From: an uncultured Bacillales bacterium
GTDB taxonomy: Bacteria; Bacillota_I; Bacilli_A; RF39; UBA660
NCBI GenBank assembly: GCA_946534345.1
Contig: CAMNCL010000005.1
Location: forward strand, 435-64,434
Direction of reading: 5' to 3'
Length of the DNA stretch: 64,000 bases
A model generated the notes under the pieces. That model made no database searches and was not told the origin of the DNA. It worked only from the letters and a program-made list of their open reading frames with translations. A program made the position numbers and the translations under genes. Shown here one piece after another: positions 5,135 through 64,000 of this stretch (position 1 is the stretch's first letter; each line of letters begins with the position of its first letter).

Positions 5135-6517
5135 TTATTTATTATGATTTACATATTCTTTTGCTACTTTGACATATTTATTATATTTTTCTTCTAATTC
5201 AGCAAAATTGTCATTTACAAAAGCAGAATCATTATCTTTACTCTTTAACTCATGTTGATAAGCGACGTCAGCTAAATCCATAAATCCTAAGTATTTACAA
5301 TCACTCTTTAATGAATGAACTAAGATAGCATATTCAGGCATATTATTTTCTTCTTTAAACTTATTGATATCTGCCCATTTAGCATCTATCTCATCAACAA
5401 AGTCAGATATAGTCATATTATACATTTCCATATCACCTAAAAGCTCTAGTCCATGATTAACATCTACTCCATTAGATTCCAAATAACTACGATCATAAAC
5501 TGTATCAGATGATTCTTCAGTCTTCTCTTCTTCCTTTGATTCTTCTTTTACTTCTTCTTTAACTTCAGTCTCTTCCTTTTTTTCTTCAACTGGAGCTTCC
5601 TCAGTCTTCTCTTCTTCCTTAGGTTCTTCTTTTACTTCTTCTTTAACTTCAGTCTCTTCTTTTTTCTCTTCTACTGGAGCCTCTTCAGTCTTTTCTTCTT
5701 CCTTAGGTTCTTCTTTTACTTCTTCTTTTGCTTCAGGTTCTTCTTTTTTTTCTTCGGCAGGAGCTTCTTCAGCCTTTTCTTCTGCCTTCGGCTCTTCTTT
5801 TACTTCTTCTTTTGTCTCAGACTCTTCTTTTTTCTCTTCTACCGGTGCTTCCTCAGTCTTCTCTTCTTCCTTTTGTTCTTCTTTTACTTCTTCTTTAGTC
5901 TCAGTCTCTTCCTTTTTCTCTTCAACTGGAACTTCCTCAGTCTTTTCTTCTTCCTTTGGTTCTTCTTTTACTTCTTCTTTTGTCTCAGTCTCTTCTTTTT
6001 TCTCTTCTACCGGTGCTTCCTCAGTCTTCTCTTCTTCCTTTGATTCTTCTTTTACTTCTTCTTTTGTCTCAGACTCTTCTTTCTTTTCTTCAACTGGTGC
6101 TTCCTCAGTCTTTTCTTCTTCCTTTGGCTCCTCTTTTACTTCTTCTTTTGTCTCAGACTCTTCTTTCTTTTCTTCAACAGGGGCCTCTTCAGTCTTCTCT
6201 TCTTCTTTAGATTCTTCTTTTACTTCTTCTTTAACTTCAGACTCTTCCTTCTTTTCTTCAACTGGAGCTTCCTCAGTCTTCTCTTCTTCCTTTGATTCTT
6301 CTTTTACTTCTTCTTTAACTTCAGTTTCTTCCTTCTTCTCTTCAACTGGAGTCTCCTCAACCTTTTCTTCTATAGGCGCTTCTTCAATTGTTTTTTCCTC
6401 TACAACACTTTTTTCAGAAGAATCTCCATTAGAAGTTTTTATAGTTCCGTTAAATCCATTAATAACAATTCTTGTAGTTGCCTCTGTTTGTTCAACTAAT
6501 TCATTTTCATCAAACAT
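5135..6517 (-). CDS. HPt (histidine phosphotransfer) domain protein with long Glu/Lys-rich repeat region
   Basis: 460 aa. The C-terminal ~110 aa contain AILVHSLKSDCKYLGFMDLA, which matches the HPt H-x-x-K-G/S...G phosphohistidine motif. Residues ~40-336 are 28-aa acidic repeats. Confidence 0.65.
   Translation of the reverse strand: MFDENELVEQTEATTRIVINGFNGTIKTSNGDSSEKSVVEEKTIEEAPIEEKVEETPVEEKKEETEVKEEVKEESKEEEKTEEAPVEEKKEESEVKEEVKEESKEEEKTEEAPVEEKKEESETKEEVKEEPKEEEKTEEAPVEEKKEESETKEEVKEESKEEEKTEEAPVEEKKEETETKEEVKEEPKEEEKTEEVPVEEKKEETETKEEVKEEQKEEEKTEEAPVEEKKEESETKEEVKEEPKAEEKAEEAPAEEKKEEPEAKEEVKEEPKEEEKTEEAPVEEKKEETEVKEEVKEEPKEEEKTEEAPVEEKKEETEVKEEVKEESKEEEKTEESSDTVYDRSYLESNGVDVNHGLELLGDMEMYNMTISDFVDEIDAKWADINKFKEENNMPEYAILVHSLKSDCKYLGFMDLADVAYQHELKSKDNDSAFVNDNFAELEEKYNKYVKVAKEYVNHNK
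5510..6400 (-). repeat. in-frame tandem repeat, 84-bp (28-aa) period, about 10.5 copies
   Basis: The protein unit EEKTEEAPVEEKKEE(S/T)E(V/T)KEEVKEE(S/P)KE recurs 9 times in full, plus a longer first unit and a truncated last one. The nucleotide units are visibly near-identical. Confidence 0.85.
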
Positions 6518-12452: not shown

Positions 12453-13232
12453 TTAGTATAAACCCCATTCTGCTAGTTTTTCAAAACCACCTATTTCATT
12501 AATATAATCTCTAGCAATCTCAACTATCTCAGTGTATGGAATTCCATCTACTTCTTCATCACCTATAGCACAACATAGTTTTATCTCTCTATTTTCTTTT
12601 TGGGCTTTCAAGAATGCATAAATATTTATACTTACATCAGCCTTTGATAAATCTTTTCCATGAAGTCCTCCACCAGTTACAGATTCAGCCATATCAGATC
12701 CAAGTTTTCTATTAGTCGCACCACTATCGGTATTAATACCACCTATCCAGTCTCCTAATGGATTAATTACTGCATCAGGATAATCTTTTCTCAACTCTTC
12801 GCTTGATACATTACTCTGACAAATAATTAATTTATCACTTAAAATATATTTACCATCAAACGGATATTTATTATAAATATCATGAGCAATCTTTGATAAC
12901 TTTTTATCACATTCTTTTAATGGTACACCTTTAAAAATACCATTATCACCACATCTAATTTTATCTTTTTGGTTATTAGCTAAATACTCATCTTGTCTAA
13001 CTACTTGTAGATCAACAACTACTTCTCCTGCAATTCTTTTAACTATTAAATCTATTTCATCTTTTTTAAAATCTTCACTTGTTTCAATAATAATATGACA
13101 ATTACCATGTCCTAATAATACTTCAACTGCAATCTTTGGATTATCATTTTTAGTATAGGCTAAATCAACTATAGCTCCAGCTATCCTATCAGCCTGTTTG
13201 TCCGGATGTGCTGGATTAACTTTTTCTATCAT
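12453..13232 (-). CDS. miniaturised S-adenosylmethionine synthetase (MetK)-like protein
   Basis: 259 aa. PAHPDKQADRIAGAIVD compares with MetK GHPDKICDQISDAILD. CGDNGIFKG compares with GAGDQGLMFGYA. TDSGATNRKLGSDM...GGGLHGKDLSKADVS compares with GDAGLTGRKIIVDTYGG..HGGGAFSGKDPTKVDRS. It is the last gene of the S-box-controlled operon. Confidence 0.6.
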   Translation of the reverse strand: MIEKVNPAHPDKQADRIAGAIVDLAYTKNDNPKIAVEVLLGHGNCHIIIETSEDFKKDEIDLIVKRIAGEVVVDLQVVRQDEYLANNQKDKIRCGDNGIFKGVPLKECDKKLSKIAHDIYNKYPFDGKYILSDKLIICQSNVSSEELRKDYPDAVINPLGDWIGGINTDSGATNRKLGSDMAESVTGGGLHGKDLSKADVSINIYAFLKAQKENREIKLCCAIGDEEVDGIPYTEIVEIARDYINEIGGFEKLAEWGLY

Positions 13233-13443: not shown

Positions 13444-13758
13444 CTAATCTAGCATTTTTAATGGATGATTTGTATCATACTTTTTATAAATATTATAGAT
13501 TTGAACAAACTCACTTTTTGTGATTGCATGATTCCCTACTGGAATTGTTAGACCAACTCCTGGTATTCCAAATGCATAAATTTTACTATTTAAATTTACA
13601 TAAATCCAATTTATTCCCGGAAAGTGTCCTTTTCTTCCCCAAGAATTGAATCCTTCTTTTTCTAAAAAAGCAATAAAATTAGAATACCATCCTTTTTTTA
13701 GTTCATCATCTTTTATTAAAAAGGCACTACTTCCAGAAGAGATTCGATTAGAATCCAT
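13444..13758 (-). CDS. hypothetical protein (S-box operon gene 1)
   Basis: 104-aa ORF. GGAGGAT precedes its ATG, directly after the riboswitch terminator. I recognised no motif. Confidence 0.55.
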   Translation of the reverse strand: MDSNRISSGSSAFLIKDDELKKGWYSNFIAFLEKEGFNSWGRKGHFPGINWIYVNLNSKIYAFGIPGVGLTIPVGNHAITKSEFVQIYNIYKKYDTNHPLKMLD

Positions 13759-13788: not shown

Positions 13789-13906
13789 AAAAAAAGACTC
13801 AAGATAACCTTGAGTCCTAAAGTTATCTTATAGATCTAGCATTACCACCTAACTTAATAGGTTGGTGTGACTTCATAGGGCTAGTCCCTCCATCACTCTT
13901 TATAAG
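13789..13906 (-). promoter_or_regulatory. SAM-I (S-box) riboswitch with intrinsic terminator
   Basis: Minus strand reads CUUAUAAAGAGUGAUGGAGGGACUAGCCCUAUGAAGUCACACCAACC...GGUGGUAAUGCUAGAUCUAUAAG. It matches the S-box core: CUUAUC.AGAG, GGAGGGA, GCCC.AUGAA, CAACC, GGUG..AAU, AUAAG closing P1. It is followed by GACUCAAG-GUUAU-CUUGAGUC plus U7 (13789..13817). Confidence 0.9.
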
Positions 13907-13946
13907 ATGTAAATTCATTATAACATTATTTTTATTAATATCAAGT

Positions 13947-50671: not shown

Positions 50672-51739
50672 CTACTTATATTCTTTCTTTACAGGAGCAA
50701 GTGCTGGTTTATTTTGTTTATTTGTAACTATCCAAGCATTTGATACAGTTCTTCCTCCATATTCAGCTCCAGCTGATGGTCTATTCCATAGTTTACCTTC
50801 AATACTCATAGTAGAAGATGCTCCACCATCTAAGTTAGCAGCATTATATGCTTTATATCTTACTAAGATATCAATAACATCATTTAATGTAGCTCCTACA
50901 CTATATCCTGGTAATCTACCTTCAATAATTAGGAATAATACTACTCCATCTTTTCTTTGAGCAATTACACTACGAGGTGCAGTTCCCCAACCACCATCAC
51001 CATGGATCTTACTAGTTTTACCATTAACTATTAAGAATGGTCCAAATTCTACTGCAGCTTCCATTCCATTCGCAATAGCTTCTTTTGGAGTTTCATAAGT
51101 TAAATACATTTTATGATCTTTAGTGAAACCAATTAATCCTCCAGATCCACCAGAATGAGTCCAGATAAGTTTACTATCTTGAATAATAGCTCCATATGGA
51201 ATAGAACCATTACCCCAACCATCTAAATCTTCAAATCCTCCACCATTAATACCTACTAAAGCATCATTATTAAGAACTAATTTATTAACAGATTGACCGG
51301 CTTTACCAAGTTTATTACTAACAGCTAATTCAACATTACTAGGATCATAAATACCTATTAACCAACCCTTAAACTTAGGTTCATTTATTCTAATAGTTTT
51401 ATAAATATCATTACCTTTATCTTTAGTAAATAACTCTCTTTCATATTTATTAGAATAATGTTTCTTAGTACCATCACTAATAACTATATCATCTAAATTA
51501 ATCTTTTCAGTATTCTTTTCAATATAGTTTTCACTCATAACTTTATTAACTACATCTTCATCATATAAAGTATAAGCTAAATATTTGTGAGACATAGTAG
51601 TCATTGCGGTAGGTATCCAAAAACTCTTAAATCTATAATTATGAATAACTAATAATCCTGCAATAACTGATAAGTCTAAGAAAAAGACAAATACCGTAAA
51701 TAAACTAATTTTTAAACGAATTTTTCTTTTCTTTTTCAT
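50672..51739 (-). CDS. phosphodiester glycosidase (NAGPA-like) family protein, membrane anchored, paralogue 1
   Basis: GINGGGFED, FGPFLIVNGK and APRSVIAQRKDGVVLFLIIEGR...AANLDGGASSTM match the NAGPA/DUF2233-type family. Confidence 0.75.
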   Translation of the reverse strand: MKKKRKIRLKISLFTVFVFFLDLSVIAGLLVIHNYRFKSFWIPTAMTTMSHKYLAYTLYDEDVVNKVMSENYIEKNTEKINLDDIVISDGTKKHYSNKYERELFTKDKGNDIYKTIRINEPKFKGWLIGIYDPSNVELAVSNKLGKAGQSVNKLVLNNDALVGINGGGFEDLDGWGNGSIPYGAIIQDSKLIWTHSGGSGGLIGFTKDHKMYLTYETPKEAIANGMEAAVEFGPFLIVNGKTSKIHGDGGWGTAPRSVIAQRKDGVVLFLIIEGRLPGYSVGATLNDVIDILVRYKAYNAANLDGGASSTMSIEGKLWNRPSAGAEYGGRTVSNAWIVTNKQNKPALAPVKKEYK

Positions 51740-51743
51740 TCAT

Positions 51744-53090
51744 TCACCCCATTATATATGGATTATCAACAGTTCCTTTTCCATCTTTTATAATATTTTT
51801 ATTGATTGTAATAACTGGAATAATATGTTTTTCTTCAGTAATTTCTTCTTCAGCTATTAATCCATTCTTAAATTTAATATATTGAAGATCACCTTGATAA
51901 GTATTTATTAAATAAATATCATCAAAATTATTATCGTCATAATCAAACATGTTTAATAAACCAACTTTACAATTAACTTTATCTTTATAAATATTATTAT
52001 ATGAATAACCCGCTTCTATACTTAATTCTCCTATATAATAATCATTATTTATAATTGAATCTTTATAACTTAAACTATTTAAATAACTATTGTTTAAATA
52101 TACTGCTAGTCCATTCCAATCTTCTAAATCAAATGACTTTTCTTTCTTACTAAATCTATATTTAAACTCTTTATTATCTACTTTTATATAATCTGTCTTT
52201 ACTAATCTTAATAACTCATTATCTTCTTTATATACTTTCCAAGTATCATTACCTAGTTTAACAATAGAATTAATATAATTTGTATTTTTACCTTGATCAA
52301 TAGTATAAGGATTATCTACAGTACCATCTCCATATGCTGAAATAATATTCTTCTTTAGAGTTATTACTGCTCTTACACCATATCCACTTAAATTATCACT
52401 TTCTGATACTGTTCCATCATCTTCTACATATAATGTGGATTTATCACTATTTAAACCTAATATATAGAAGATTTTACCAGTATTTAAATAACTATTTTTT
52501 CCATTAGCTATTACATAATCATTAATACCTAATGTAGTAACATAAGAATCATATGTCTTTTTAGATTTAAGTACTTTATCATCCTTTAGGATATCTTCAG
52601 AGTATTTAGTCTTTACTAAGAATTTATCAATATTAGGAATAGTATTATAATAAATACCTGAATTTTCTTGATCAGTTTTATCTAACCAATTATTTAAATT
52701 AGATTTTAAATAAGTAGTATCTTCTCCCCACATAAATGACCCTACTGTATTATCTGTGATTAATTTAATAGAACCATCATTATTAATTCTTATAACTCGA
52801 TATAATCTATTTGCGAATCTTACATAATTATTATTAACATGGCCTTTAAAATAATGTCCTTCTTTATCTTGATGAAAGCCATCTCCAGTTGAGACTAATT
52901 TATTACTATTAATAATAACTTCAGATAGATTTTGATTATTACCTTCATGAGCTATATTTTGTTTACTATAATAATAGAGACTACGATATCCAAAATATAT
53001 TCCTATACCCATAACAATTAATAAACTAAATATATTGAATAAGAATTCTCCTCTAGTATATAGATGTCTTCGTTTATTTTTCTTTGCCAT
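51744..53090 (-). CDS. hypothetical single-pass membrane protein with two G-x-G-T-V-D-N-P-Y motifs
   Basis: It has an N-terminal TM helix and a large extracytoplasmic region. The motifs are GDGTVDNPYTI and GKGTVDNPYIMG, the second at the C-terminus. I moved the start to the ATG at 53090, after GGAGAA. Confidence 0.6.
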   Translation of the reverse strand: MAKKNKRRHLYTRGEFLFNIFSLLIVMGIGIYFGYRSLYYYSKQNIAHEGNNQNLSEVIINSNKLVSTGDGFHQDKEGHYFKGHVNNNYVRFANRLYRVIRINNDGSIKLITDNTVGSFMWGEDTTYLKSNLNNWLDKTDQENSGIYYNTIPNIDKFLVKTKYSEDILKDDKVLKSKKTYDSYVTTLGINDYVIANGKNSYLNTGKIFYILGLNSDKSTLYVEDDGTVSESDNLSGYGVRAVITLKKNIISAYGDGTVDNPYTIDQGKNTNYINSIVKLGNDTWKVYKEDNELLRLVKTDYIKVDNKEFKYRFSKKEKSFDLEDWNGLAVYLNNSYLNSLSYKDSIINNDYYIGELSIEAGYSYNNIYKDKVNCKVGLLNMFDYDDNNFDDIYLINTYQGDLQYIKFKNGLIAEEEITEEKHIIPVITINKNIIKDGKGTVDNPYIMG

Positions 53091-53177
53091 AATCATATTC
53101 TCCATCTTAAAAAATTATACCAAATAAAAAGAATAAGTACAAGACTTACTCTTCATTTTATATTCTTCTAAAATACA

Positions 53178-54224
53178 TTATTTAACTACCCAGAAGGTAG
53201 ACATATCTCTTAAACCATTAGATCCTCCAGCAACTGGAGTATTAATTATTTTATTATTAATTACTAGTTCGGATGAAGATCCACCATCTAAATTAGCAGC
53301 ATTATATGCACCATAATTTTCCATTACATCACATAAATCTACCATATCAGCACCAATACTTGTAGTTAGTCGACCATTTATTACTAAGAATAGTACTATT
53401 CCATCTTGTCTTTGTCCAATAGCAGTTCTAGGAGCTATTCCCCAACCACCATTACCACGAATGAAACTTCTTTTTCCATTAACTATTAAGAATGGTCCAA
53501 ACTCTACAGCATCACGAATACCCATACTCATTGCTTTTTCTTTACTCATGTTTCCTAAAACAAGTTTATTCTCATCAGTAAAACCAATAAATCCTCCACC
53601 CATACGAGCATCATAATAATCACTAACAACTTTTCCATTAGATATTACAGTTCCATGTGGAAGAGCTCCATTACTATTCCAATCAGGATCATAGAATCCT
53701 CCAGCATTCATTGCAATAATAGCCTTTTCTCTTTTACTAACTGTTAGAATAGATTCTCCAGCTACTCCTAACTTAGAAGTAGTTGCGATTGAAACTCTAG
53801 ATGGATCATAGATTGCGACTAAATAACCTTGATAACCCTTTCCAGAAATATTAATTAATTTGTATAAATCATTACCTGGGTCTTTAGATAATATTTCTTT
53901 CTCATACTTATTACGATAAATAGTAGTGGTATATTTTCTAAACTTAATCATATCTGGATTAGTAATTTCATCAACCTCAATAATACTATTTTGTTTTAAT
54001 ACTTTTTGAATATATTCATCACTATATAAAGCTGTAGCCAAATACTGATGAGACATAGTAGTCATAGCACTTGTAATCCAAAACTCTTTAAAACTATTAA
54101 TTGGTCCATAAAAAAGAAATAAAAAAACAGAAAAACCCAGAATATATGTTATACATATTCCAGCAATTACTTTTCTACCAAAAGGCCATCTATATTTATT
54201 TATTTTCTTTTTTTTATTAAACAT
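53178..54224 (-). CDS. phosphodiester glycosidase (NAGPA-like) family protein, membrane anchored, paralogue 2
   Basis: It has the same block structure as 50672..51739: MNAGGFYD, FGPFLIVNGK, APRTAIGQRQDGIVLFLVINGR...AANLDGGSSSEL. Confidence 0.75.
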   Translation of the reverse strand: MFNKKKKINKYRWPFGRKVIAGICITYILGFSVFLFLFYGPINSFKEFWITSAMTTMSHQYLATALYSDEYIQKVLKQNSIIEVDEITNPDMIKFRKYTTTIYRNKYEKEILSKDPGNDLYKLINISGKGYQGYLVAIYDPSRVSIATTSKLGVAGESILTVSKREKAIIAMNAGGFYDPDWNSNGALPHGTVISNGKVVSDYYDARMGGGFIGFTDENKLVLGNMSKEKAMSMGIRDAVEFGPFLIVNGKRSFIRGNGGWGIAPRTAIGQRQDGIVLFLVINGRLTTSIGADMVDLCDVMENYGAYNAANLDGGSSSELVINNKIINTPVAGGSNGLRDMSTFWVVK

Positions 54225-54226
54225 AA

Positions 54227-54793
54227 TTAGTCCTCTTTGCCTTCTATTTTATTATCTCCATTATAATCAATATAATCTCTTTTAGTCTTATATTTATCAA
54301 TAATTAAAGTAGATTTTTTACTTTCTTGATCTTTATTATATTTATCAACATTCTTATTATATACAGCAATATCCCCTACAAAATAATTATTTACTTGTTC
54401 ATAAATACTTTTATAATTAGAACATTTAGTATTAGTTTCCATATCAGGATAATATACATCTTTACATAAATCATTTAGCTTTAAAGTAGTCTTTTCTAAT
54501 TCATCAACTAAGTTTTCATAGTTAGATAGTTTTTCTTTTACTTTTTCATCATCTTTATAAAAAGTATCATAATAAACATTACTCAATACTTTATTGTATA
54601 ATTCATCTCTAACATTTTCAAAAACAGTTGTATTAGTACTTAACACTTCAAATTCATTATTGACAACTGATATTCTCTTTTGTGTTTCTAATCTATCTTC
54701 TTTTAAACCCAATACAAAAGAAGATACTCCTCCTGCCATTATCATTATAAAACTAAGTGTCATCAATACATGTGCTAGTTTAGTACCATTCAT
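54227..54793 (-). CDS. hypothetical single-pass membrane protein
   Basis: It has a TM helix (VLMTLSFIMIMAGGVSSFVLGL) followed by a helical Asn/Lys/Tyr-rich domain. I moved the start to the ATG at 54793 (MNGTK), after AGGTGA. Confidence 0.55.
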   Translation of the reverse strand: MNGTKLAHVLMTLSFIMIMAGGVSSFVLGLKEDRLETQKRISVVNNEFEVLSTNTTVFENVRDELYNKVLSNVYYDTFYKDDEKVKEKLSNYENLVDELEKTTLKLNDLCKDVYYPDMETNTKCSNYKSIYEQVNNYFVGDIAVYNKNVDKYNKDQESKKSTLIIDKYKTKRDYIDYNGDNKIEGKED

Positions 54794-54887
54794 ATTATCA
54801 CCTATATTAATTTTAACAAAGCATATGTAAAATGTACATAAATACAAAAAAAGAAAGAGCAAGTTTACTCTTTCCTTTACACATTAT

Positions 54888-55373
54888 TTACTTCACAATA
54901 TTCTTTCTTTCACTCTTAGATAGTTTCTCAATTGTATAATCTGTGGCATCTTGTAGACTTCCACCCTTAAATTGAGCAACTACTTTAGAACTATCTTCTG
55001 GTGAAATATCAGTATAATGAACTACTACTCCTTTTTCACCAAATTTTAATCTTAAATATCCTGAAGCTGATTCTTCTCCTTTGTTAGTTACAGTACACTC
55101 AATTCTACCTTCGCTTTCTGTACTATATACTGTAACATCAGTAATACAAATAGTATCTAAACAATGTTCTGCTTTTAATTCATCAGTAGATATTTCTTTT
55201 GTACCTGGAAGTTCAACTACCTTATCTTCAAAAATATATTCGTTACCCATATTTTCTACTTCATTTTGAAGTTTTTTACTAGTTAGAGCAACTATTATTA
55301 TAGCAAGTAAGAAGGCTAGAACAGTAGCGAACAGTATTAATGAATCTTTATTTTCTTTAACAAATTTTTCCAT
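54888..55373 (-). CDS. hypothetical single-pass membrane protein with small beta-rich ectodomain
   Basis: 161-aa ORF, 15 nt downstream of the giant pilin-like gene. It has a TM helix (LILFATVLAFLLAIIIVAL). Confidence 0.55.
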   Translation of the reverse strand: MEKFVKENKDSLILFATVLAFLLAIIIVALTSKKLQNEVENMGNEYIFEDKVVELPGTKEISTDELKAEHCLDTICITDVTVYSTESEGRIECTVTNKGEESASGYLRLKFGEKGVVVHYTDISPEDSSKVVAQFKGGSLQDATDYTIEKLSKSERKNIVK

Positions 55374-55388
55374 ATATTTTACCCCTTT

Positions 55389-58300
55389 CTAGTCTCTTAT
55401 TCTTACATAATTAACAGTATTTGATGGATTATAAATATAAGGACTATTTGCTGCTTCCATCTCAGATACTGGAATCTTTTTACCTGTTGGAGTAATTGTT
55501 GGATTACCAGAATATCCATCATAAGTAACGGAATATACAGCATAATAATCTTGTCCATCATAAGTAGTTGAGGTTAATAAATCAGTAACAGGAATAGATT
55601 CAGTACGAGGCATTGTTCTCTTTCTTAACCCAATTGCCATCATATATCTAACAGGTTGTCCACTTACTTCTGGATACTTAAAGCAATCAATAAATGAACA
55701 ATTCTTAGTAACTTCACTTGTTTCCTCTACTGTTATGTCATTACCATTAGCATCTTGTGATGTAATTTTTTTAGGACATAATTTTTCAGGTTTAAATCTA
55801 TCTTGATATTTCAATTTTTGTGTATATAAACCAACTATACCAGAAGTATCATATACTCTTTCTGATTTTAAAGCATCTTTATCATTAGGATCAGTTACTT
55901 CAGAAGCTTGAGCATAATAACACAATCCTGCAACTGTACCATTAGAACATGTACTTGCACTAATCTTTGTACCGGTAATACCTGTACCATCAGTTGTAGG
56001 AACTTGTTTATTTAAGAATGTAAAACTTCCTGCGCTTTCATCCTCTTCTATTTCAGCACAGTCATTAACAGTATGTCCTAATACAGGAGTTCCTTCAGAA
56101 ATATTTCCATAAGAATCTTGAACGAAAACATAATACTCTGTATATGTTGTTCCTACACCTTCCTCATCTACAAAGTATTGTAAATATTCATTTTTATCTT
56201 TAACATAATATACCATTCCTGAAGTAACATCATCTGCTGAAAAACCTTCTCCATTAGCTTTACCAACAAATTTTCCAGTACATTTACTCTTATTATTTTC
56301 TTGAGCAACGCATATTTTATAAGTGTCAAACTTATCATCAACATCAACACTAACTATTATTTTAGGTTTGTCTGGACTTGATCCAACAGCTTGTGTTACA
56401 CCTTCCGGTTCAGTAAAGTTTTCTTCTTCATCATCAACCAAACCATTATGATTGATATCTCTTCCCCATACTGCAGTATATGTAATTACATTTTGACTAT
56501 TGGCATTAGTGCCAGAAACATATTCTTCCACTACTGGATTCCAGTAAGAGAACACATAGTTATTATCTCTAGAGCTTGGTAGAGTAAGGCCTCCACTATA
56601 TTCAGTTGTTTCTCCCGCATATGGTGGCGTAGAATCACCCGCAGATAAATTAGAGAAAAGTGTTTTTCCTTCTACATTTTCTGTGAAATTACCATACCTT
56701 CTATTACCAGTATTACCAGTTACATATTTTACTGTATAAGTTCCAGTATCTTCACTTGGGTCAGTTGATGGGGTTGGCTCAGGTATATCCGTTCCTTCAC
56801 CTTCACCTTCATCGTTCATATCAATTTCTAATCCACCTTGGTATGTTGCAACAGCAGACTTAATAACTGGTGCTGTATCAGTATATAATTTATAAGTCTG
56901 TGCAGCCAAGTATTTACTTTGATCTGTTGATGTAACTTTTCCTAAACTATCTTTAATTCTTGCATATATAACAAAATCATGATTAGCTGATCTTGCATAT
57001 GATGCTGAATCCAATGTAATTGGATATTCATGATCATAAGTATAATCCATATAGTTTGTACATGCTATAGCACTATTTGCACTACTACTCTTTGCTCTAT
57101 AACATACTTGTACTTGTAAATTTAGTGGTAACTCATAATCATCAGTTGCGTCGACTTTATATTTAACATTTTTGGAATTGTAATATGTTGTAGATATTAC
57201 TTCACCTGCTTCATTTTTCTCTTCATAAGGTGCTACTGTTGATTCTACTGATATAGAATCTTCAACAATTGTAGGAGCTTCATTTTTGTAAACAGTATAC
57301 TCTTGTGAAACACGTGTAGTAGATTCTTCTGAGTCCATAGCATATACGTATAAAGTATGTTTAGAACCATCATAAACATTATTAATACTTTTTCCTATAT
57401 TAAATTCAAAAGTCTTTTCTGCTTCAGTAAATTTAGAATATCTAAAATACTTTCCATCTAATATACAGTCATGTACATATTCTTTAGCAGAAGTCTTTGT
57501 AGATGTACAAACTTGCTTTCTCTCACATTTACTAGCATCCTCAGTTAAACATATTAATAAATCGTCTAAATCAGGATCTTCTGAATCAATATCATCTTCT
57601 ATATCAAAATCAACTGTAACATTAGGATTTCCACTATTTAAATAAGGACAAGTATAATTAGCATGACAGTTTCCAGTTTTTGGAGTTATTTTAAAGTATC
57701 CTGTTCTTACTTCTTCTTCATCAGGAATTCCATTTCCATCTACATCTTCTTTATATTCTGCAACATAAACAATTTCACATTGGTTAGTATCCGTAGCATT
57801 AACAGATCCACAATTAGTTCTAGTAGCCATCTCAGCTTGAATAGTATCTGATAAATAAGGTTTCCATCTAGTAAATACCCAACCTTGTTGAGCTTTTGGC
57901 TTTTCAAACACTTGAGGTTCTACAGGCACTGTAGGTTCTTCAGAAGTACCTTCACCATCTTCACCAGTTTCAGGTTCTGGTTCATCCTGCTTTTCAACAT
58001 ATATTGATTTATCTCCAGCAAATTCTGGTGTTGTTGTATCTAAAGAACATCCTCTAAATAATGTTTTCCCTTCTTCACCTTCTATGAAATCACCATGTTC
58101 ACCTTTCATATACTTAACTGTGAATTTTTCATCTGCATCAGGAATATTATTCTCATTTCTATCATCTTCATGTGCTTCATCAAATTCAAATGGCTGATCA
58201 TCTACTTCTGCTGCAGGTGTACCCATAGCAAAAATTGTAGGTGGTTGATTAGCATATAATTTGTAAGTTGCCTCTAAATTTTTTGTAGCTTCATTATATG

Positions 58301-60551
58301 TATCATATACTTCTAAAACTATTTTTTTAGTTTTACCATCATGTTTACCAGGTATACGATATTCTATTCCAGATTCGTTGTTCTCAACTTTTTTAAATGT
58401 ATTATCTTGATACTCAACAGCTCCTGATTCACTAAGTATTTTAACTTTATATCTTAAATCGTCTACTTTATCAATATCATCCTTAACATTAAAGAATATT
58501 CTTGTATCCAATGAACCAGTAACTGTGTAAGACTTTGATTCTGATTTTACTTCATAGTTTGTAACTGCTGGTGCTTTATTTTTGTATAGCTTATAAGTAA
58601 CTTTATTACCAGTAGTAGCATCATAATTTGTACTACCATTACTATCTTTAGCAATAATGTAAAGTGTTTTAGTTGTACCATCATATGGAGCTGTAGTTTT
58701 ATTCTTATTGAATACATATTCATGTCCACTTACATAATTTGAGAATGGTTCAAAATTAGCAGTATTTTCAGGTCTACAGTCTGCTTTATTTTCTGACATA
58801 CAAACTTTTATTTTTCTTTCAATATCATCGTAATCTAGGTCATCATCAACAGCAAAAGAAACTGTTGCCTTTTGATTACCACCTGAACTTAAAGGACATT
58901 GTTCTTCATCATTACAAGCAAACCCATTACTCTCTACATTAATATTTGATAATACCGGAGGTTTATTTTGATATACTTTATATGCTTTAGTAACATCTTT
59001 ATAAACTCCACATTCATCAGTAAGTCTTACTGTTATATTTCTATTTTGTCCATCATATTGACCATTAATAGTAAATGGAGTTTCTGCACTTGTATCTAGC
59101 ATATCTAATTTCTTAGTAGTACTATTAGGTTCTTTTATCTCTACTTTAATTTTAGAGTTAGTTGAAACATCATCAGAGCCAACTGTTTTAACTCGAATAT
59201 TTAAACTTCCAGAAGTAACTGAATTATCCATAAATGCTTCTTTTTCAGAAGTTATTGTTACTGAATCTATTACAGGTGGATTATTTTTAGCTATAGTATA
59301 ACTAAAGACATTTTCTTTATTTATTAATCCCTTTGTATCTCTAACAAATACTCTAACATTTTTTGTTTGACCATTCATAACACATTCATTTGACTCAAAA
59401 GAATATAACATTTCATTATCTTCTTCAAACAAATCTCTATAAGGCTTATAATCTTTGCAGGTTTCTTCGCTAGTATTTTCATTGAAACATACTTCAAGAT
59501 TTCTATAATCATCAATATCATCAGAAACACTTAGTCTGAAGACTGCAGTTGGTCTATTAACTTTATCACCTACCTGTTTAGAGAAACCTGATTCTTCTTT
59601 AACAACTGTAGGTGCCCCATTTTCATGAAGTCTATAAACTATATTAGTACGGTCTTCATTTTTTTCCTTATCTCGAACAACTATAAATAAATTTACTATT
59701 GAATTATTTTCATAATTGAAATTATATGGTTTTTGATCAAAATTAAACTTTTTTGTGAAAGAATTGTTTATACCATAAGATTCACCAGTACATGTAGCAC
59801 ATAAAGCATCACTATAACTAGTTGTAGATATATATACCTTTAAAGAACTACCAGGAGAATCTTCATCTTCAACTGTTAATGTTAATGTTGCGTCTAGTGA
59901 ATTGAATGGTTTTCCTGATGTAGAAGTCAAAGTAGCTTTAGTAATAACTGGTGGTTCTAATCCTCCAGAAGATGCATCATCATCTAATTTAGGTTCATTG
60001 TATACTTTTTCAATTGAATCTACATATTGACCACCTAATCTACCATTAATATAAGTAGAATTATCAAAATGCGAATCATCAGTTACTTTAACTATATAAT
60101 TAATACCCTTTACGTACTTAGAAGCCGCATTTCTTTCATGTAATTTGGAACTGCTAGTCAATTCTATTCCTTTGTAGCCACCCTTTGGCATTTTTTCAAC
60201 TATTGCTCCAGAGTATTCTAATCTACCTCCATCGTTTTTAACAACTACATATGAGGCTTCTTTAACATATTCTCCTCTATTAGGCGCTGTATCAAAATCA
60301 CTATCATCTAAATAAACCAAACTGATTACAATACAATTTCCATCAGAAGGTTTTTCGATATCTGTATTTGCCGCTTTCATTTTATACTCTGCTTGAGCCA
60401 TTAGTTTTTGAACATCAGTAACATACATTTTATCTCTATTGCTACCTACCATTCCAGTAATCGCTGGTGCAGCAAACATAAAAATAATTCCTAATATTAC
60501 TATTGTTGCCAAAAGCTCAATTAATGTAAAACCTTTATTACCCTTTTTCAT
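55389..60551 (-). CDS. giant modular type IV pilin/pseudopilin-like surface protein (1720 aa)
   Basis: The N-terminus MKKGNKG|FTLIELLATIVILGIIFMFAAPAI is a prepilin cleavage/methylation signal with Glu at +5. About 8 repeated acidic modules end in Y-x-x-Y-x-N-x-P-P-x-I/V. Two Flg_new-like inserts are at nt ~57708..58127 and ~56421..56741. The C-terminal domain is Cys-rich. Confidence 0.8.
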   Translation of the reverse strand: MKKGNKGFTLIELLATIVILGIIFMFAAPAITGMVGSNRDKMYVTDVQKLMAQAEYKMKAANTDIEKPSDGNCIVISLVYLDDSDFDTAPNRGEYVKEASYVVVKNDGGRLEYSGAIVEKMPKGGYKGIELTSSSKLHERNAASKYVKGINYIVKVTDDSHFDNSTYINGRLGGQYVDSIEKVYNEPKLDDDASSGGLEPPVITKATLTSTSGKPFNSLDATLTLTVEDEDSPGSSLKVYISTTSYSDALCATCTGESYGINNSFTKKFNFDQKPYNFNYENNSIVNLFIVVRDKEKNEDRTNIVYRLHENGAPTVVKEESGFSKQVGDKVNRPTAVFRLSVSDDIDDYRNLEVCFNENTSEETCKDYKPYRDLFEEDNEMLYSFESNECVMNGQTKNVRVFVRDTKGLINKENVFSYTIAKNNPPVIDSVTITSEKEAFMDNSVTSGSLNIRVKTVGSDDVSTNSKIKVEIKEPNSTTKKLDMLDTSAETPFTINGQYDGQNRNITVRLTDECGVYKDVTKAYKVYQNKPPVLSNINVESNGFACNDEEQCPLSSGGNQKATVSFAVDDDLDYDDIERKIKVCMSENKADCRPENTANFEPFSNYVSGHEYVFNKNKTTAPYDGTTKTLYIIAKDSNGSTNYDATTGNKVTYKLYKNKAPAVTNYEVKSESKSYTVTGSLDTRIFFNVKDDIDKVDDLRYKVKILSESGAVEYQDNTFKKVENNESGIEYRIPGKHDGKTKKIVLEVYDTYNEATKNLEATYKLYANQPPTIFAMGTPAAEVDDQPFEFDEAHEDDRNENNIPDADEKFTVKYMKGEHGDFIEGEEGKTLFRGCSLDTTTPEFAGDKSIYVEKQDEPEPETGEDGEGTSEEPTVPVEPQVFEKPKAQQGWVFTRWKPYLSDTIQAEMATRTNCGSVNATDTNQCEIVYVAEYKEDVDGNGIPDEEEVRTGYFKITPKTGNCHANYTCPYLNSGNPNVTVDFDIEDDIDSEDPDLDDLLICLTEDASKCERKQVCTSTKTSAKEYVHDCILDGKYFRYSKFTEAEKTFEFNIGKSINNVYDGSKHTLYVYAMDSEESTTRVSQEYTVYKNEAPTIVEDSISVESTVAPYEEKNEAGEVISTTYYNSKNVKYKVDATDDYELPLNLQVQVCYRAKSSSANSAIACTNYMDYTYDHEYPITLDSASYARSANHDFVIYARIKDSLGKVTSTDQSKYLAAQTYKLYTDTAPVIKSAVATYQGGLEIDMNDEGEGEGTDIPEPTPSTDPSEDTGTYTVKYVTGNTGNRRYGNFTENVEGKTLFSNLSAGDSTPPYAGETTEYSGGLTLPSSRDNNYVFSYWNPVVEEYVSGTNANSQNVITYTAVWGRDINHNGLVDDEEENFTEPEGVTQAVGSSPDKPKIIVSVDVDDKFDTYKICVAQENNKSKCTGKFVGKANGEGFSADDVTSGMVYYVKDKNEYLQYFVDEEGVGTTYTEYYVFVQDSYGNISEGTPVLGHTVNDCAEIEEDESAGSFTFLNKQVPTTDGTGITGTKISASTCSNGTVAGLCYYAQASEVTDPNDKDALKSERVYDTSGIVGLYTQKLKYQDRFKPEKLCPKKITSQDANGNDITVEETSEVTKNCSFIDCFKYPEVSGQPVRYMMAIGLRKRTMPRTESIPVTDLLTSTTYDGQDYYAVYSVTYDGYSGNPTITPTGKKIPVSEMEAANSPYIYNPSNTVNYVRIRD

Positions 60552-60565
60552 AATACATCCTCCAA

Positions 60566-61447
60566 TTATTTTCTAAAAATTATTAATTTACTAGCTAAAT
60601 AATTAAATATGATAACTAAAATATTAGCTATTATTTTGGAGATAGTTTCATTCATATCTAGAATATCTATCATAACAAACATAGATCCAGTATCACATAC
60701 AACAAAAGATACAATTCTAAATATAATAAAACTTAGACATTCTTTAAGCATTGCTTTTTTGCTATTGCTTTTTTTATCAAAAACATATAGTTTGTTTGTA
60801 ACATAAGCAAATAAAACAGCTACACACCAAGCGATTGTATTACTTAAATATAATTCAACCCCAAAATATCGTAATAAGCAAAAAGCAAAAATATTTAACA
60901 GTGTTGTACATCCTCCAAAGAATAAATATAAAATAACTTCTTTATAGCGATTATACCAAGATGTACTGTTCGTATTTTCTATATAATTCTCTAATAATTT
61001 TATCATATTTTGTGTATTACTTACAAACTTTTTTGGCTTAAATTTATTAATTTTTTTAATTATTTTTCCCAATTCATCAAAATCTTCTAATTCAACAATA
61101 TAACCTTGCTTAGTAAACTCACCAATAATTTGTTTTTGATGATCATTATGATGCTCTTTATACTTTGCTAATCTAGCGGCTGCAATAACCTTTTTATTCT
61201 TTTTTATAGCAGATAAAATACTTCCAACCCCACCATGAGTAATTACTAGGTTGGCTTCATCCATTAACTTTTCAAATTCTGGTGCTGGTAATAAATCAAA
61301 TATTTCCATATTAGGAGATGAATACTTAGTTTGTCCTGCTTGAACAACAACTTTTTCTTTTATATCTCCATTGTCAATCGCCCTATCAACTGCTTTTAAT
61401 AATCTGGAAAAATCTTTATCTTGAGTTCCTAAAATAACTAATATCAT
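60566..61447 (-). CDS. Alg13-like glycosyltransferase subunit (Glyco_tran_28_C, PssE/Cps14G-like) fused to a GtrA-like membrane domain
   Basis: The N-terminal half carries MILVILGTQDKDF ... VITHGGVGSILSAI. The C-terminal ~125 aa have 4 TM helices with YLFFGGCTTLLNIFAF ... VTNKLYVF, which is GtrA-like. The start ATG at 61447 overlaps the upstream stop (TAATG). Confidence 0.75.
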   Translation of the reverse strand: MILVILGTQDKDFSRLLKAVDRAIDNGDIKEKVVVQAGQTKYSSPNMEIFDLLPAPEFEKLMDEANLVITHGGVGSILSAIKKNKKVIAAARLAKYKEHHNDHQKQIIGEFTKQGYIVELEDFDELGKIIKKINKFKPKKFVSNTQNMIKLLENYIENTNSTSWYNRYKEVILYLFFGGCTTLLNIFAFCLLRYFGVELYLSNTIAWCVAVLFAYVTNKLYVFDKKSNSKKAMLKECLSFIIFRIVSFVVCDTGSMFVMIDILDMNETISKIIANILVIIFNYLASKLIIFRK

Positions 61448-61923
61448 TAGTAAATCCACCCCCCAAATTCTGCATCAGGGTATAGATCCTTCATACTTTC
61501 CCATTGAACAATAAATTTATCTGCAATAGGATATATCAATTTACCTGTCGCAGTTTTAGTAACCATATTCGCAAATGTTTCTATATAGATTATCTTAGTT
61601 CCAAATATTTTACCAATACAGCACATTGGCCCAGCAGTATGAACACCAGTAGTAATTATATAATCTGGTCTAAATTTCAAATAATAATACAAACTAATAA
61701 AACAATTTGCTAATAATTTAAAGGGATACGAAAAGATATGGTGTTTTGTTCCATAGATTAAAAATCTTACTCGGTCACCATATTTTTTCTTTAAATATAG
61801 ATTAGACTTAGTCTTTTCAGTAATTAAAGAATAATCATATTTCTTAAACATCTTTTCTAGCTGTAATAATTCATTTAAATGTCCACCAGTTGAAGAAATA
61901 AACATAACTCTTCTTTTAGTCAT
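61447..61923 (-). CDS. Alg14-like glycosyltransferase membrane-anchor subunit (PssD/Cps14F-like)
   Basis: ~158 aa. VMFISSTGGHLNELLQL and ITTGVHTAGPMC motifs are present. It pairs with the Alg13-like gene. Confidence 0.75.
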   Translation of the reverse strand: MTKRRVMFISSTGGHLNELLQLEKMFKKYDYSLITEKTKSNLYLKKKYGDRVRFLIYGTKHHIFSYPFKLLANCFISLYYYLKFRPDYIITTGVHTAGPMCCIGKIFGTKIIYIETFANMVTKTATGKLIYPIADKFIVQWESMKDLYPDAEFGGWIY

Positions 61924-63064
61924 AAATATCACTCTCTTCTATTAGTGTAATCCATTCTTCTCCAACTATATCACTTGTGTATTTCTTCACACTATTTCTA
62001 GCTTGTTTACCAATTCTTATTCTTTCACTTTTATTATTAATTAAATCTTCTATTTTCATTATCATAGCATCAAAATTTCGATTTTTAATTAAATAACCAT
62101 TATCTCCACTATTTATAATTTCTCTTGCTCCTTCTGCAGAATCAAATGCAATACAAGGAACACCATGACTCATAGCTTCAATCAATACAATTCCAAATGA
62201 TTCAGTATATGATGTCATCAAGTAAATAGCAGAATCATCTAGTATTTTATCAATATAATCTTTTCCTTGAAAACCATGAAGTATAACTTTACCATTAAGA
62301 TTATTATCTTCAATATACTTCTTTAATTTGTCTTTTTGTACCCCATCTCCAATAATATCTAGAACCCAATCAGGATTCTTTTTACTTAAACGATTAAATA
62401 TTTTAAGTAAATCCAAATAACCTTTTTCAGGAGATAGTCTTCCTACAGAAACAAGTCTTTTATTAGTCAAGGTTGCACTTTTTTTAGGTAATTTATCAAT
62501 AGAATTAGGTATGTATATACACATACAATTACTATTACGTAATTTTTCAGCATAGAATTTTTGTAACTCAGAAGAAACTAATACTAAATAATCTAAGTTC
62601 TTTGCACTATTAGATACTTTTTCTGCATACTTCATATTTTCATGGAAATGATTATGTTCCCATCCAATTTTTAAAATTCCATCCTGACAATAACCACTTA
62701 CCCAATAATTAAAAATATCTCTAGTTGAAATAATTACATCACAATCAGTATTCCTTATATAATCAACCATTGTTTTTTTTCGATAATATAAGACTTTTGT
62801 AGAAAATATTAATTCTCTTATAATTTTAATAATATTTTTACTCTTTAAAGCATTTCTTAAAGATTCATGATTTGGCTTCAAATTCTTATTTAAATATTTT
62901 ACTTTTACTTTATCTTTTAATTCAAAAACACTATTATCATAAAGCTTGTAACATACAGCTATTTCTACTTCATATTTTTCACACAAGGTATTGGCCAAAT
63001 TAACAACACACTTTTCAATTCCTCCATACCCTAAATGTAAGGCTAAAATAGAGATTTTTTTCAT
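61916..63064 (-). CDS. glycosyltransferase family 4 (GT-B, Glycos_transf_1)
   Basis: 382 aa. VGRLSPEKGYLDLLKIF and SYTESFGIVLIEAMSHGVPCIAFDSAEGAREII form the EX7E region. Confidence 0.9.
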   Translation of the reverse strand: MKKISILALHLGYGGIEKCVVNLANTLCEKYEVEIAVCYKLYDNSVFELKDKVKVKYLNKNLKPNHESLRNALKSKNIIKIIRELIFSTKVLYYRKKTMVDYIRNTDCDVIISTRDIFNYWVSGYCQDGILKIGWEHNHFHENMKYAEKVSNSAKNLDYLVLVSSELQKFYAEKLRNSNCMCIYIPNSIDKLPKKSATLTNKRLVSVGRLSPEKGYLDLLKIFNRLSKKNPDWVLDIIGDGVQKDKLKKYIEDNNLNGKVILHGFQGKDYIDKILDDSAIYLMTSYTESFGIVLIEAMSHGVPCIAFDSAEGAREIINSGDNGYLIKNRNFDAMIMKIEDLINNKSERIRIGKQARNSVKKYTSDIVGEEWITLIEESDIYD

Positions 63065-63081
63065 ATTATCACCCTATTCAT

Positions 63082-63109
63082 ATTATAGCATTATTTATTA
63101 TTAATTCAA
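63082..63109 (-). promoter_or_regulatory. sigma-A-type promoter of the glycosyltransferase/giant-pilin block
   Basis: The minus strand has TTGAAT (63109..63104), a 16-nt spacer and TATAAT (63087..63082), followed by AGGGTGA and the GT4 ATG. Confidence 0.5.
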
Positions 63110-63122
63110 AGAAAATACAAAT

Positions 63123-63147
63123 AAAAAAAGCATTCATAGAATGCTTT
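63123..63147 (-). terminator. rho-independent terminator after the Pro/Ala/Met-rich gene
   Basis: Minus strand reads AAAGCAUUC-UAU-GAAUGCUUU followed by U7. Confidence 0.65.
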
Positions 63148-64000
63148 ATTGAACTGGTGTTACAGGTGCTTCCACCATTGCTGGTTGTTCTACAGCTGGT
63201 GCTACTTCAGGAACTACTGGAGCAACTCCTTGCATTGTAGGATCAGCAGCTGGCGCCATTTCTGGCATTGCAGGTTCACTAGCAACTGGTTGTTCTACAG
63301 CTGGTGTTTCTACCATTGCTGGTTCTTGAACAACTGGTTCTGCTGCAGGAGCTACTTCTGGAACTGCAGGTTGTTCTACCATAACAGGTTCTGGAGCAGC
63401 TGCAGGTGCAACTGAAGGCATAGTTTGGGTATTTTCTAATGGATCTGCACCACCATAAATTTGGTGATTAGTTTCCTGATTAACATTAATATTATCAACA
63501 GCTGGACTAGCTCCTCCATAAATTACTGGAGCTTCTTGAGCAACTGGCTCTGCTGCTGGTGCCATTTCTGGCATTGCAGGTTCTGCTGCTGGTGCAGCTT
63601 CTGGCATTGCAGAATCTACTGCTGGTGCAATTGGTTCAACTGCTGGTGCAACTTCTGGCATTGCAGGTTCTGCTGCTGGTGCCATTGGTTCAACTGCTGG
63701 CGCCATTTCTGGCATTGCAGGTTCTGCTGCTGGTGCAATTGGTTCAACTGCTGGTGCAACTTCTGGCATTGCAGGTTCTACTGCAGGTGCTGCCATCGGA
63801 TCAACTACTGGAGCTGCCATAGCGTCCATTGGTTGTTCTACAGCTGGCATTTCTGGCATTGCAGGAGCCATAGGGTCAACTGCTGGTGCAACTTCTGGCA
63901 TTGCAGGTTCTACTGCAGGTGCTGCCATTGGTTCAACTGCTGGAGCTGCCATAGCATCCATTGGTTGTTCTACTGGTGTTGCGATATCTGCTGGCATTGC
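63146..64000 (-). CDS. C-terminal part of a Pro/Ala/Met/Glu/Val-rich repetitive protein (5' end outside window)
   Basis: The frame is open to the window edge (855 nt, in frame). It has degenerate units such as APAVEPMAPAAEPAMPEMA, and a central non-repeat segment with two IYGGA(S/D)P motifs. Confidence 0.7.
   Translation of the reverse strand, partial: AMPADIATPVEQPMDAMAAPAVEPMAAPAVEPAMPEVAPAVDPMAPAMPEMPAVEQPMDAMAAPVVDPMAAPAVEPAMPEVAPAVEPIAPAAEPAMPEMAPAVEPMAPAAEPAMPEVAPAVEPIAPAVDSAMPEAAPAAEPAMPEMAPAAEPVAQEAPVIYGGASPAVDNINVNQETNHQIYGGADPLENTQTMPSVAPAAAPEPVMVEQPAVPEVAPAAEPVVQEPAMVETPAVEQPVASEPAMPEMAPAADPTMQGVAPVVPEVAPAVEQPAMVEAPVTPVQ
63744..63973 (-). repeat. imperfect 98-nt direct repeat at 132-bp spacing within a shorter degenerate repeat field
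   Basis: By manual alignment, 63744..63841 recurs at 63876..63973 with about four substitutions. The motif ctggtgcaacttctggcattgcaggttc occurs at least four times between 63640 and 63910. Confidence 0.7.

Follow-up and report, generated by a model that had tools for sequence, protein, structure and literature searches.

A family of giant modular prepilins with predicted adhesin-type stalks from uncultured bacteria of the ruminant gut

The window analysed here is a stretch of 64,000 nucleotides (nt) from an uncultured Bacillales bacterium (GenBank assembly GCA_946534345.1, contig CAMNCL010000005.1, positions 435 to 64,434; GC content 27%). On its minus strand it encodes a protein of 1720 amino acids (aa) that begins like a type IV pilin and continues like a fibrillar adhesin. 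The protein belongs to a family that is real, well conserved and uncharacterised; modular pilins as a concept are already established. We consider it to be probably a true type IV pilin with a grafted fibrillar adhesin, i.e., a substrate of a prepilin peptidase and a modular minor pilin displayed at a filament tip. Display on a pilus and function as an adhesin are what we infer. Judged by sequence, the family joins a pilin, a fibrillar-adhesin stalk, a terminal domain of its own and a partner gene, with at least two giant copies and a third large pilin per genome.

An earlier note on this DNA had placed a 1720-aa open reading frame (ORF) at 55389-60551. It exists, on the minus strand; it starts with ATG and is preceded by a GGAGG Shine-Dalgarno sequence 7 nt upstream. 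The N-terminus, MKKGNKG/FTLIELLATIVILGIIFMFAAP (the slash marks the predicted cut), had been read as a class III prepilin signal, and it passes the cut-offs of both Pfam (PF07963 N_methyl, 28.2 bits, cut-off 21.2) and TIGRFAM (TIGR02532, 29.2 bits, cut-off 16.3). The sole hydrophobic segment of the protein comprises aa 8-35. An LPXTG motif or another C-terminal anchor is absent from the whole sequence. Matches to the ComG and GspG/H equivalogs stay below the NCBIfam cut-offs (GspG 23.3 bits versus 88.85; ComGC 15.6 versus 75), and so do those to ComGD, ComGE and ComGF; all these alignments span the N-terminal 30-55 residues only.

A search that covered 5.8 billion proteins yielded 87 homologues of 1041-1720 aa, all from metagenomes or metagenome-assembled genomes (MAGs). 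Gly-1 and Glu5, whose conservation the note had put up as a check, are kept in all 87, at identities of 27-49%, and the motif G/FTL[IV]E is present in each of them. In mature numbering, Phe1, Thr2, Leu3 and Glu5 are as invariant as Gly-1 (87/87), Pro22 is found in 86/87 and Gly14 in 77/87; the leader has 5-10 residues, mostly 7. The constraint on this N-terminus exceeds mere hydrophobicity, since the membrane anchor of the partner protein (see below) is not conserved in sequence. The invariant Gly-1 points to cleavage by a prepilin peptidase. Invariant Glu5, near-invariant Pro22 and frequent Gly14 point beyond cleavage to filament assembly. Gly14 and Pro22 delimit the stretch of alpha-1N that melts in assembled type IV pilus filaments. 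Glu5 pairs with the N-terminus of the neighbouring subunit in filaments, and the apex subunit alone can dispense with it (PMC10628169).

The pilin-like head of about 190 aa that the note had proposed can be placed at aa 1-196, and structure prediction as well as profile searches support its nature as a pilin module. An AlphaFold2 model of aa 1-430 (alignment of 27 sequences, mean predicted local distance difference test score, pLDDT, 85.5) contains a continuous helix from 10 to 59, which is the helix of about 50 residues expected of a pilin alpha-1. Five to six beta-strands, a linker (189-197) and two beta-sandwiches follow. The pLDDT is 80-95 in the head and about 51 in the linker. The strand order after alpha-1 is compatible with an alpha-1C lying on an antiparallel beta-sheet; the Foldseek matches of the model are mostly immunoglobulin (Ig) modules. 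A head profile built from 28 sequences was searched against PDB sequences, and 20 of the 20 top matches are type IV pilins or pseudopilins. In these alignments alpha-1 covers residues 1-53 of PilE1 (8pfb_G) and residues 1-56 of PilA (6xxd_A); GspG is aligned as well. A pilin module, a linker of low confidence and Ig-like sandwiches beyond it make up what has been defined as a modular pilin (Raynaud et al. 2021).

The stalk was said to consist of about eight tandem modules. Eight were found, and they are mutually related (all-against-all BLASTP, E down to 1e-14). All six acidic patches and all six Y-x-x-Y-x-N-x-P-P junctions named in the note are present; a seventh junction lies at aa 306. At the DNA level a tandem repeat of module length is absent from the gene, which has only short repeats of 6-18 bp; the modules are therefore old, diverged duplications. 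Pfam and NCBIfam, applied to the whole protein and to its separate pieces, matched nothing beyond the N-terminal motif. No Cadherin or Big model of Pfam passes (Cadherin_3 13.6 bits versus 25.5), and the isolated modules remain without a match. Thus, of the hidden Markov model checks proposed for this protein, N_methyl passes, and Flg_new, cadherin-like and Big families do not. The likeness to these families lies in structure alone. M0 and M1 were modelled with pLDDT of 85-93, and Foldseek matched these sandwiches in the PDB to BIg domains of SiiE (E 3e-7); further matches are SraP, cadherins, extender domains of RTX/ice-binding adhesins and pairs of FN3 domains. Against giant adhesins the E-values range from 3e-7 to 1e-4, at a sequence identity of only about 10%. 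The stalk is thus predicted to be built of Ig-like modules of the type found in giant calcium-binding adhesins, and the note's idea of an adhesin-like shaft gains support from structure prediction and Foldseek. Eight related modules with the fold of adhesin domains constitute a tandem Ig-like stalk as expected of a fibrillar adhesin; the other expected feature, a recognised adhesive domain together with a recognised wall or membrane anchor, is not found in the 1720-aa protein.

The stalk is interrupted by two inserts, I1 and I2, which are homologous to each other (BLASTP E 4e-12) and occur only in the four closest homologues. The two DxDxNGxxD-EEE motifs described in the note are both there (EDVDGNGIPDEEE, RDINHNGLVDDEEE). 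Its proposal that the inserts resemble Flg_new lacks statistical support: Pfam finds nothing significant in the inserts of this protein, and in eight insert copies from four homologues the best match to Flg_new_2 reaches E=0.21 (2/8). The calcium-binding Excalibur domain gave a single weak match in the same eight copies (E=0.084, 1/8), and an insert profile found no relative in the PDB. In a second AlphaFold2 model (aa 1230-1720) most of I2, about aa 1250-1378, has a pLDDT below 50. One homologue, P0037, has a LysM domain (47 bits, aa 729-770) in mid-stalk, about where the window protein has I1; this point of the stalk therefore seems to accept accessory modules.

The note had called the last 225 or so residues Cys-rich. 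A domain of 225 aa is indeed there, and it contains six Cys (2.7%). Each of the six (1498, 1535, 1544, 1592, 1618, 1623) is invariant or nearly so in the family. The pLDDT of the domain exceeds 90 for the most part and drops to the 70s-80s near aa 1650-1668. Among PDB structures the best match has an E-value of 0.016, which means no analogue, and a library of viral structures offered nothing credible (best TM score 0.10). When a profile of the domain was searched against 1.84 billion representative proteins, it returned 89 matches only, all of them members or fragments of the giant-pilin family; in 79 of the 87 homologues the domain is detectable. Of the new full-length matches, 38/39 start with the canonical prepilin motif, the exception being an N-terminally truncated fragment. 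Pilin module and terminal domain therefore always occur together; the family is a narrow one. The domain is presumed to be the ligand-binding end. In a subgroup (P0072, P0074-P0076, P0078, P0081) about 215-240 extra residues follow the conserved domain; the motif at the end of this extension, ...GYRYVITINTN, resembles ...YGVRAVITLKKN in a 453-aa neighbour of the pilin (window 51744-53105).

Conservation falls along the chain. The identity to the window protein is 63% in alpha-1N, 55% in alpha-1C, 48% in the head, 40% in M0, 35% in M1 and about 25% in M7 and the C-terminal domain. Almost every family member has the head and M0; the number of modules varies. Such a gradient in sequence would fit a conserved assembly end and a diversifying binding end. 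The database names of the proteins are automatic only ('type II secretion system protein', 'prepilin-type N-terminal cleavage/methylation domain-containing protein', MAG Bacilli bacterium). No paper describing this family was found in the literature on giant or large modular pilins, so that the check for an already characterised family of the same architecture came out negative. Exact sequence matches are found in sheep-rumen metagenomes (SHIW14-1, SAMN02144230, JGI 3300002641).

The giant pilin is not the only one of its kind in the genome. On the same scaffold of 84,443 bp, a second locus some 22 kb past the right end of the window encodes a paralogue of 1397 aa (P0011). A gene for a membrane protein of 165 aa follows; its product shares 38% identity (E 5e-41) with the 161-aa protein encoded after the giant pilin. 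The locus also encodes a third large prepilin, of 1013 aa (MKKNGFTMIELL...; N_methyl 26.6 bits), whose body is different and very rich in Cys. A related genome (L016) contains the same set of three. The presence of two more large proteins with the same signal supports the reading as a pilin. A gene of similar size follows the giant pilin at every locus examined. The 161-aa partner has no match in Pfam or NCBIfam, and a word-index search with it found only two clusters. Glycosyltransferase and NAGPA genes, which surround the pilin gene in the window (Table 1), are missing at the second locus; the robust unit is therefore the giant pilin with its partner of about 160 aa. The idea that glycosyltransferases are obligatory partners of the pilin was rejected on the same ground.

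Table 1. Predicted features of the giant prepilin, its gene neighbourhood and the second locus (window coordinates unless stated otherwise)
Feature	Position	Strand	Remarks
Giant prepilin gene	55389..60551	minus	1720 aa, 191.5 kDa, isoelectric point (pI) 4.6; stop codon 55389-55391
Leader peptide, aa 1-7 (MKKGNKG)	60531..60551	minus	Invariant Gly-1 at end; predicted prepilin-peptidase cut before Phe8
Pilin alpha-1 helix, aa 8-59	60375..60530	minus	Glu5, Gly14, Pro22 (mature numbering); AlphaFold2 helix 10-59
Pilin head, globular part, aa 60-196	59964..60374	minus	Five to six beta-strands and short helices predicted
Stalk modules M0-M4, aa 197-772	58236..59963	minus	Predicted Ig-like beta-sandwiches; DDxD patches, Y-x-x-Y-x-N-x-P-P junctions; M0 197-315, M1 316-427, M2 428-533, M3 534-662, M4 663-772
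Insert I1, aa 773-950	57702..58235	minus	EDVDGNGIPDEEE motif at end; BLASTP match to I2
Stalk modules M5-M6, aa 951-1229	56865..57701	minus	All-against-all BLASTP; M5 951-1094, M6 1095-1229
Insert I2, aa 1230-1385	56397..56864	minus	RDINHNGLVDDEEE at end; BLASTP match to I1
Stalk module M7, aa 1386-1495	56067..56396	minus	BLASTP; AlphaFold2 pLDDT above 90
C-terminal domain, aa 1496-1720	55392..56066	minus	Family-specific, beta-rich; AlphaFold2 model, family alignment
161-aa bitopic membrane protein	54888..55373	minus	Conserved partner; 15 nt downstream of pilin
Terminator-like hairpin	54849..54878	minus	13-bp stem, then T-run; directly after 161-aa gene
Downstream envelope block	50672..54862	minus	About 190 aa, NAGPA phosphodiester glycosidase, about 450 aa, second NAGPA; N-terminally anchored
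PssE/Cps14G-type glycosyltransferase fused to GtrA membrane domain	60566..61459	minus	137.5 bits, cut-off 120
PssD/Cps14F (Alg14-like) glycosyltransferase subunit	61447..61932	minus	NCBIfam 164.8 bits, cut-off 110
GT4 glycosyltransferase	61916..63064	minus	First gene of predicted unit; generic GT4; best named match SdgA, 119 bits versus cut-off 800
Promoter-like site	63082..63109	minus	TTGAAT, 16-nt spacer, TG-TATAAT; consensus match only
Terminator-like hairpin before promoter-like site	63127-63147		
Second pilin locus	L014:10001-17767 (scaffold_404, sample SHIW14-1, SAMN02144230)		1397-aa paralogue, 165-aa partner, 1013-aa prepilin

All neighbours of the giant pilin gene lie on the same strand. 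The sequence suggests that GT4, PssD, PssE/GtrA, pilin and 161-aa gene form a single transcription unit of five genes, because the pilin is separated from its neighbours by gaps of 14-15 nt (the pilin starts 14 nt downstream of the PssE/GtrA stop codon), a promoter-like site precedes GT4 and a strong terminator-like hairpin follows the 161-aa gene. A functional link of the downstream NAGPA block to the pilin is uncertain. The gene order around the pilin is kept in six other assemblies, whose pilins are 27-49% identical to that of the window. The housekeeping genes further upstream are equally syntenic, and conserved order alone is therefore no proof of a functional link. The arrangement shows some variations. 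In one relative (L018:4332-4847) the PssE upstream of the pilin has no GtrA domain (171 aa versus about 295). In another sample of the same study (L013:3161-8322) the giant pilin gene is split into two ORF calls, of 1142 and 553 aa; a frameshift or nonsense variant could be the cause, or else faulty assembly. The gene between the two NAGPA genes (window 51744-53105, minus strand) encodes a conserved membrane-anchored protein of about 450-510 aa. A conserved EF(L/F/I)F immediately precedes the membrane segment of this protein, which also has two motifs of the DGTVDNPY type. In relatives (L005-L007) its gene is preceded by one or two additional multi-pass genes of about 330 aa, one with a weak match to T4SS_pilin of Pfam. 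Upstream, the glycosyltransferase-pilin unit is adjoined by a gene that is cut at the window end (63146-63997, minus strand; 412 aa in L012:8681-9919). Its product has repeats rich in Pro, Ala, Val, Glu and Met with MPE[VM]APAVEP units, and a Pfam-less gene is found at this place in all relatives examined.

How the giant pilin might work can be outlined in a few steps. The protein would insert into the membrane by its single hydrophobic N-terminal segment. Cleavage after Gly7 and methylation of Phe8 would be the task of an A24-type prepilin peptidase whose gene would lie elsewhere. The mature subunit of 190.7 kDa would then enter a Com-type pseudopilus or a type IV pilus via alpha-1. Its place there would be the tip or priming complex, because an extension of 190 kDa is too bulky for the filament body, and the 1397-aa and 1013-aa pilins would probably join it. 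The eight modules of predicted Ig-like fold would form a thin stalk, probably stiffened by calcium that may bind at the DDxD patches; from domain counts its reach is estimated at a few tens of nanometres. The stalk would hold the fast-evolving, putatively disulfide-scaffolded C-terminal domain off the cell for a ligand in the rumen. The 161-aa membrane protein, which is observed to pair with the giant pilin and is predicted to be co-transcribed with it, would be a dedicated partner.

The search for the machinery needed in this scheme comprised the 64-kb window, a further 35-40 kb or so of the same genome and the 10-kb flanks of the pilin genes in six other assemblies. In the window, the scan covered the Walker A motif of T2SSE, the motif of A24 peptidases and additional prepilin motifs, and every ORF of 100 aa or more was read. 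Pfam, applied to the unannotated neighbours at both pilin loci, revealed no PilM/N/O-like or other pilus parts. A contig scan with the head domain, which relied on over-specific peptide patterns, detected only two unrelated small-pilin loci, and a 40-aa alpha-1N query for small pilins on the same contigs returned fragments only. Several observations speak against a true pilin. Neither a prepilin peptidase, nor a T2SSE-type ATPase, nor a PilC/ComGB platform gene, nor a small major pilin is present in the DNA that was searched. The predicted co-transcription of the pilin is with glycosyltransferases, not with pilus genes. The alignment of the head with solved pilins covers alpha-1, and in Foldseek the Ig modules dominate the matches. 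Adhesion, calcium binding and disulfides are all properties that we infer, and we know of no pilin near 191 kDa that assembles. Pilin genes are, of course, often encoded away from the machinery (PMC3244431), and an orphan location alone is therefore no argument against a pilin.

The strongest competitor, unlikely in our view yet to be taken seriously, is a fibril that is anchored by its pilin segment. The protein would be cleaved by the peptidase and never polymerised; alpha-1N would stay in the membrane, and the stalk would reach across the Gram-positive wall and present the C-terminal domain. Such anchoring, an alternative to sortase and LPXTG, would be loosely comparable to that of the sugar-binding proteins of the Sulfolobus bindosome with their class III signals. 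It would account for the failure to find machinery in about 100 kb of the genome and beside the homologues examined. The N-terminus is the sole anchor of the protein, and a conserved bitopic membrane partner accompanies each giant copy. The LysM domain in the mid-stalk of P0037 is of a kind that binds peptidoglycan or chitin, wall-glycan genes adjoin the pilin, and class III signals on surface proteins other than pili have precedents (PMC3047682). However, invariant Glu5 and near-invariant Pro22 and Gly14 are tied to filament assembly and not to cleavage alone. Alpha-1 and head are the best conserved part, which suggests conserved protein partners, and the prepilin peptidase, which was not seen in the DNA examined, is required here too.

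A related, more general idea is that the pilin alpha-1 serves as a mount for giant surface fibrils in rumen Bacilli, which would either form a short heteromeric structure of their own or, once cleaved, remain membrane-anchored and dispense with a classical pilus fibre. It is based on the finding that each genome has three or more proteins of 1000-1700 aa that bear class III signals and that a membrane protein of about 160 aa follows both copies of the giant family. We regard it as a tentative suggestion with a small chance of being correct. Either variant, if true, would be a new route of surface display in Gram-positives beside sortase, and display without a pilus fibre would be a new anchoring principle.

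It appears improbable that the protein is primarily a component of the envelope glycan, i.e., a pilin that is glycosylated by, or works with, GT4, PssD, PssE-GtrA and NAGPA and uses its signal mainly for export and anchoring; a glycosylated surface fibril would be one example. The predicted five-gene unit with its narrow gaps, promoter-like site and terminator-like hairpin is in line with such a role, and the order is kept in homologues down to 27% identity. The paralogue at the second locus, however, keeps its 165-aa partner without glycosyltransferase or NAGPA neighbours. The upstream housekeeping genes are as syntenic, so that the order may reflect genome stability instead of function, and an O-oligosaccharyltransferase was not seen.

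Still less can be said for a receptor at the tip of a competence pseudopilus whose C-terminal domain binds DNA, analogous to ComP or ComZ; we judge it very improbable. Com pili are the commonest type IV filaments in Bacilli, and DNA-binding minor pilins exist (PMC8179133, PMC7212644). The weak N-terminal NCBIfam matches do include ComGC to ComGF, but they lie far below the cut-offs and concern the N-terminus only. Moreover, the protein is very acidic (pI 4.6), and it is adhesins, not DNA receptors, that typically have a long Ig-like stalk. That the N-terminus is an ordinary signal anchor of a conventional surface protein, resembling a prepilin signal by chance, is hardly credible: no peptidase was found nearby, but five positions are kept in 87/87 and Pro22 in 86/87 homologues across 27-49% identity, curated cut-offs are passed, and the alignment of the profile with solved pilins extends over their whole alpha-1. 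A prophage or tail-fibre origin was rejected, since the matches to the lambda tail tip concern generic FN3/Ig domains and the neighbourhood consists of housekeeping and envelope genes.

If the protein is a tip-displayed modular pilin, as we prefer to think, its nearest counterparts are PilB and PilC of Streptococcus sanguinis, modular minor pilins with a vWA and a lectin module, respectively, that are presented at pilus tips (PMC8179133, PMC10628169). The similarities comprise a monoderm host, Glu5 within a canonical class III signal and a pilin module of small size that a short flexible linker joins to a non-pilus effector; a tip position expected from the bulk and a role in adhesion would be further ones. 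The differences are equally evident. PilB and PilC have about 50 kDa and one grafted domain each, are encoded in a pil operon and have been tested experimentally. The giant pilin, known here from its sequence, has 191 kDa, eight Ig-like modules, two inserts, an unmatched terminal domain and a 161-aa partner, and its locus contains no pilus genes.

An InterPro survey listed more than 1200 modular pilins in 264 architectures, the most extreme multi-domain case having 860 residues (PMC8179133). Like the giant pilin, the latter has a prepilin N-terminus followed by many tandem repeats; with 1041-1720 aa, however, the giant family is up to twice as long. A survey based on domains would probably not flag this family as modular, because neither the repeats nor the terminal domain have a counterpart among Pfam or NCBIfam models. 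CofB of enterotoxigenic Escherichia coli and TcpB of Vibrio cholerae (both type IVb) and ComZ of Thermus are also large minor pilins of the tip with extra beta-rich domains that lack sequence signatures (PMC8179133). They have one or two extra domains and are much smaller, come from diderm hosts and are encoded in pilus operons (PMC8179133). PilY1/PilC of diderm type IV pili are large modular adhesins at the pilus tip (PMC8179133), as is proposed for the giant pilin. PilY1, however, is not a pilin and docks on minor pilins via a beta-propeller, whereas the giant protein carries a pilin module of its own. The stalk has its parallels elsewhere. Tandem BIg or extender domains of Salmonella SiiE, of MpIBP and other RTX adhesins and of SraP superpose on the predicted stalk modules; acidic inter-domain motifs and the plan of a stalk with a distal binding domain are shared too. 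Adhesins of this type are exported by type I secretion or accessory Sec systems and are held by an outer-membrane plug or an LPXTG anchor. The giant pilin, in contrast, is anchored by its pilin alpha-1 only, the identity is about 10%, and no Big or cadherin model passes.

Type IV pilins usually have 10-20 kDa and the characterised modular ones about 50 kDa. A pilin family of 115-190 kDa stretches what the type IV filament machine was thought able to handle, and it raises the mechanical question of how a subunit of 190 kDa is threaded through a Gram-positive wall. The family further supplies a new, presumably ligand-binding domain and a new partner protein. It comes from uncultured low-GC bacteria of the ruminant gut, a habitat in which it is important to adhere to plant fibre or other microbes. 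For ruminococci, a link between type IV pili and adhesion to cellulose has been discussed.

The window has a few other features. An S-adenosylmethionine riboswitch (RF00162, 66.7 bits) lies at 13825-13908 (minus strand), upstream of a 104-aa ORF (13444-13758); an ORF of 259 aa (12453-13232) is found further downstream. At 5135-6517 (minus strand) a protein of 460 aa is encoded that consists largely of about ten tandem repeats rich in Glu and Lys (EEKKEE.E.KEEVKEE.KEEEKTEEAPV) and has no family assignment. Finally, the segment 24532-28306 (minus strand) encodes two adjacent paralogous hybrid sensor kinases of 634 and 631 aa, assigned by reading the sequence, with multi-pass N-terminal membrane domains and C-terminal receiver domains.

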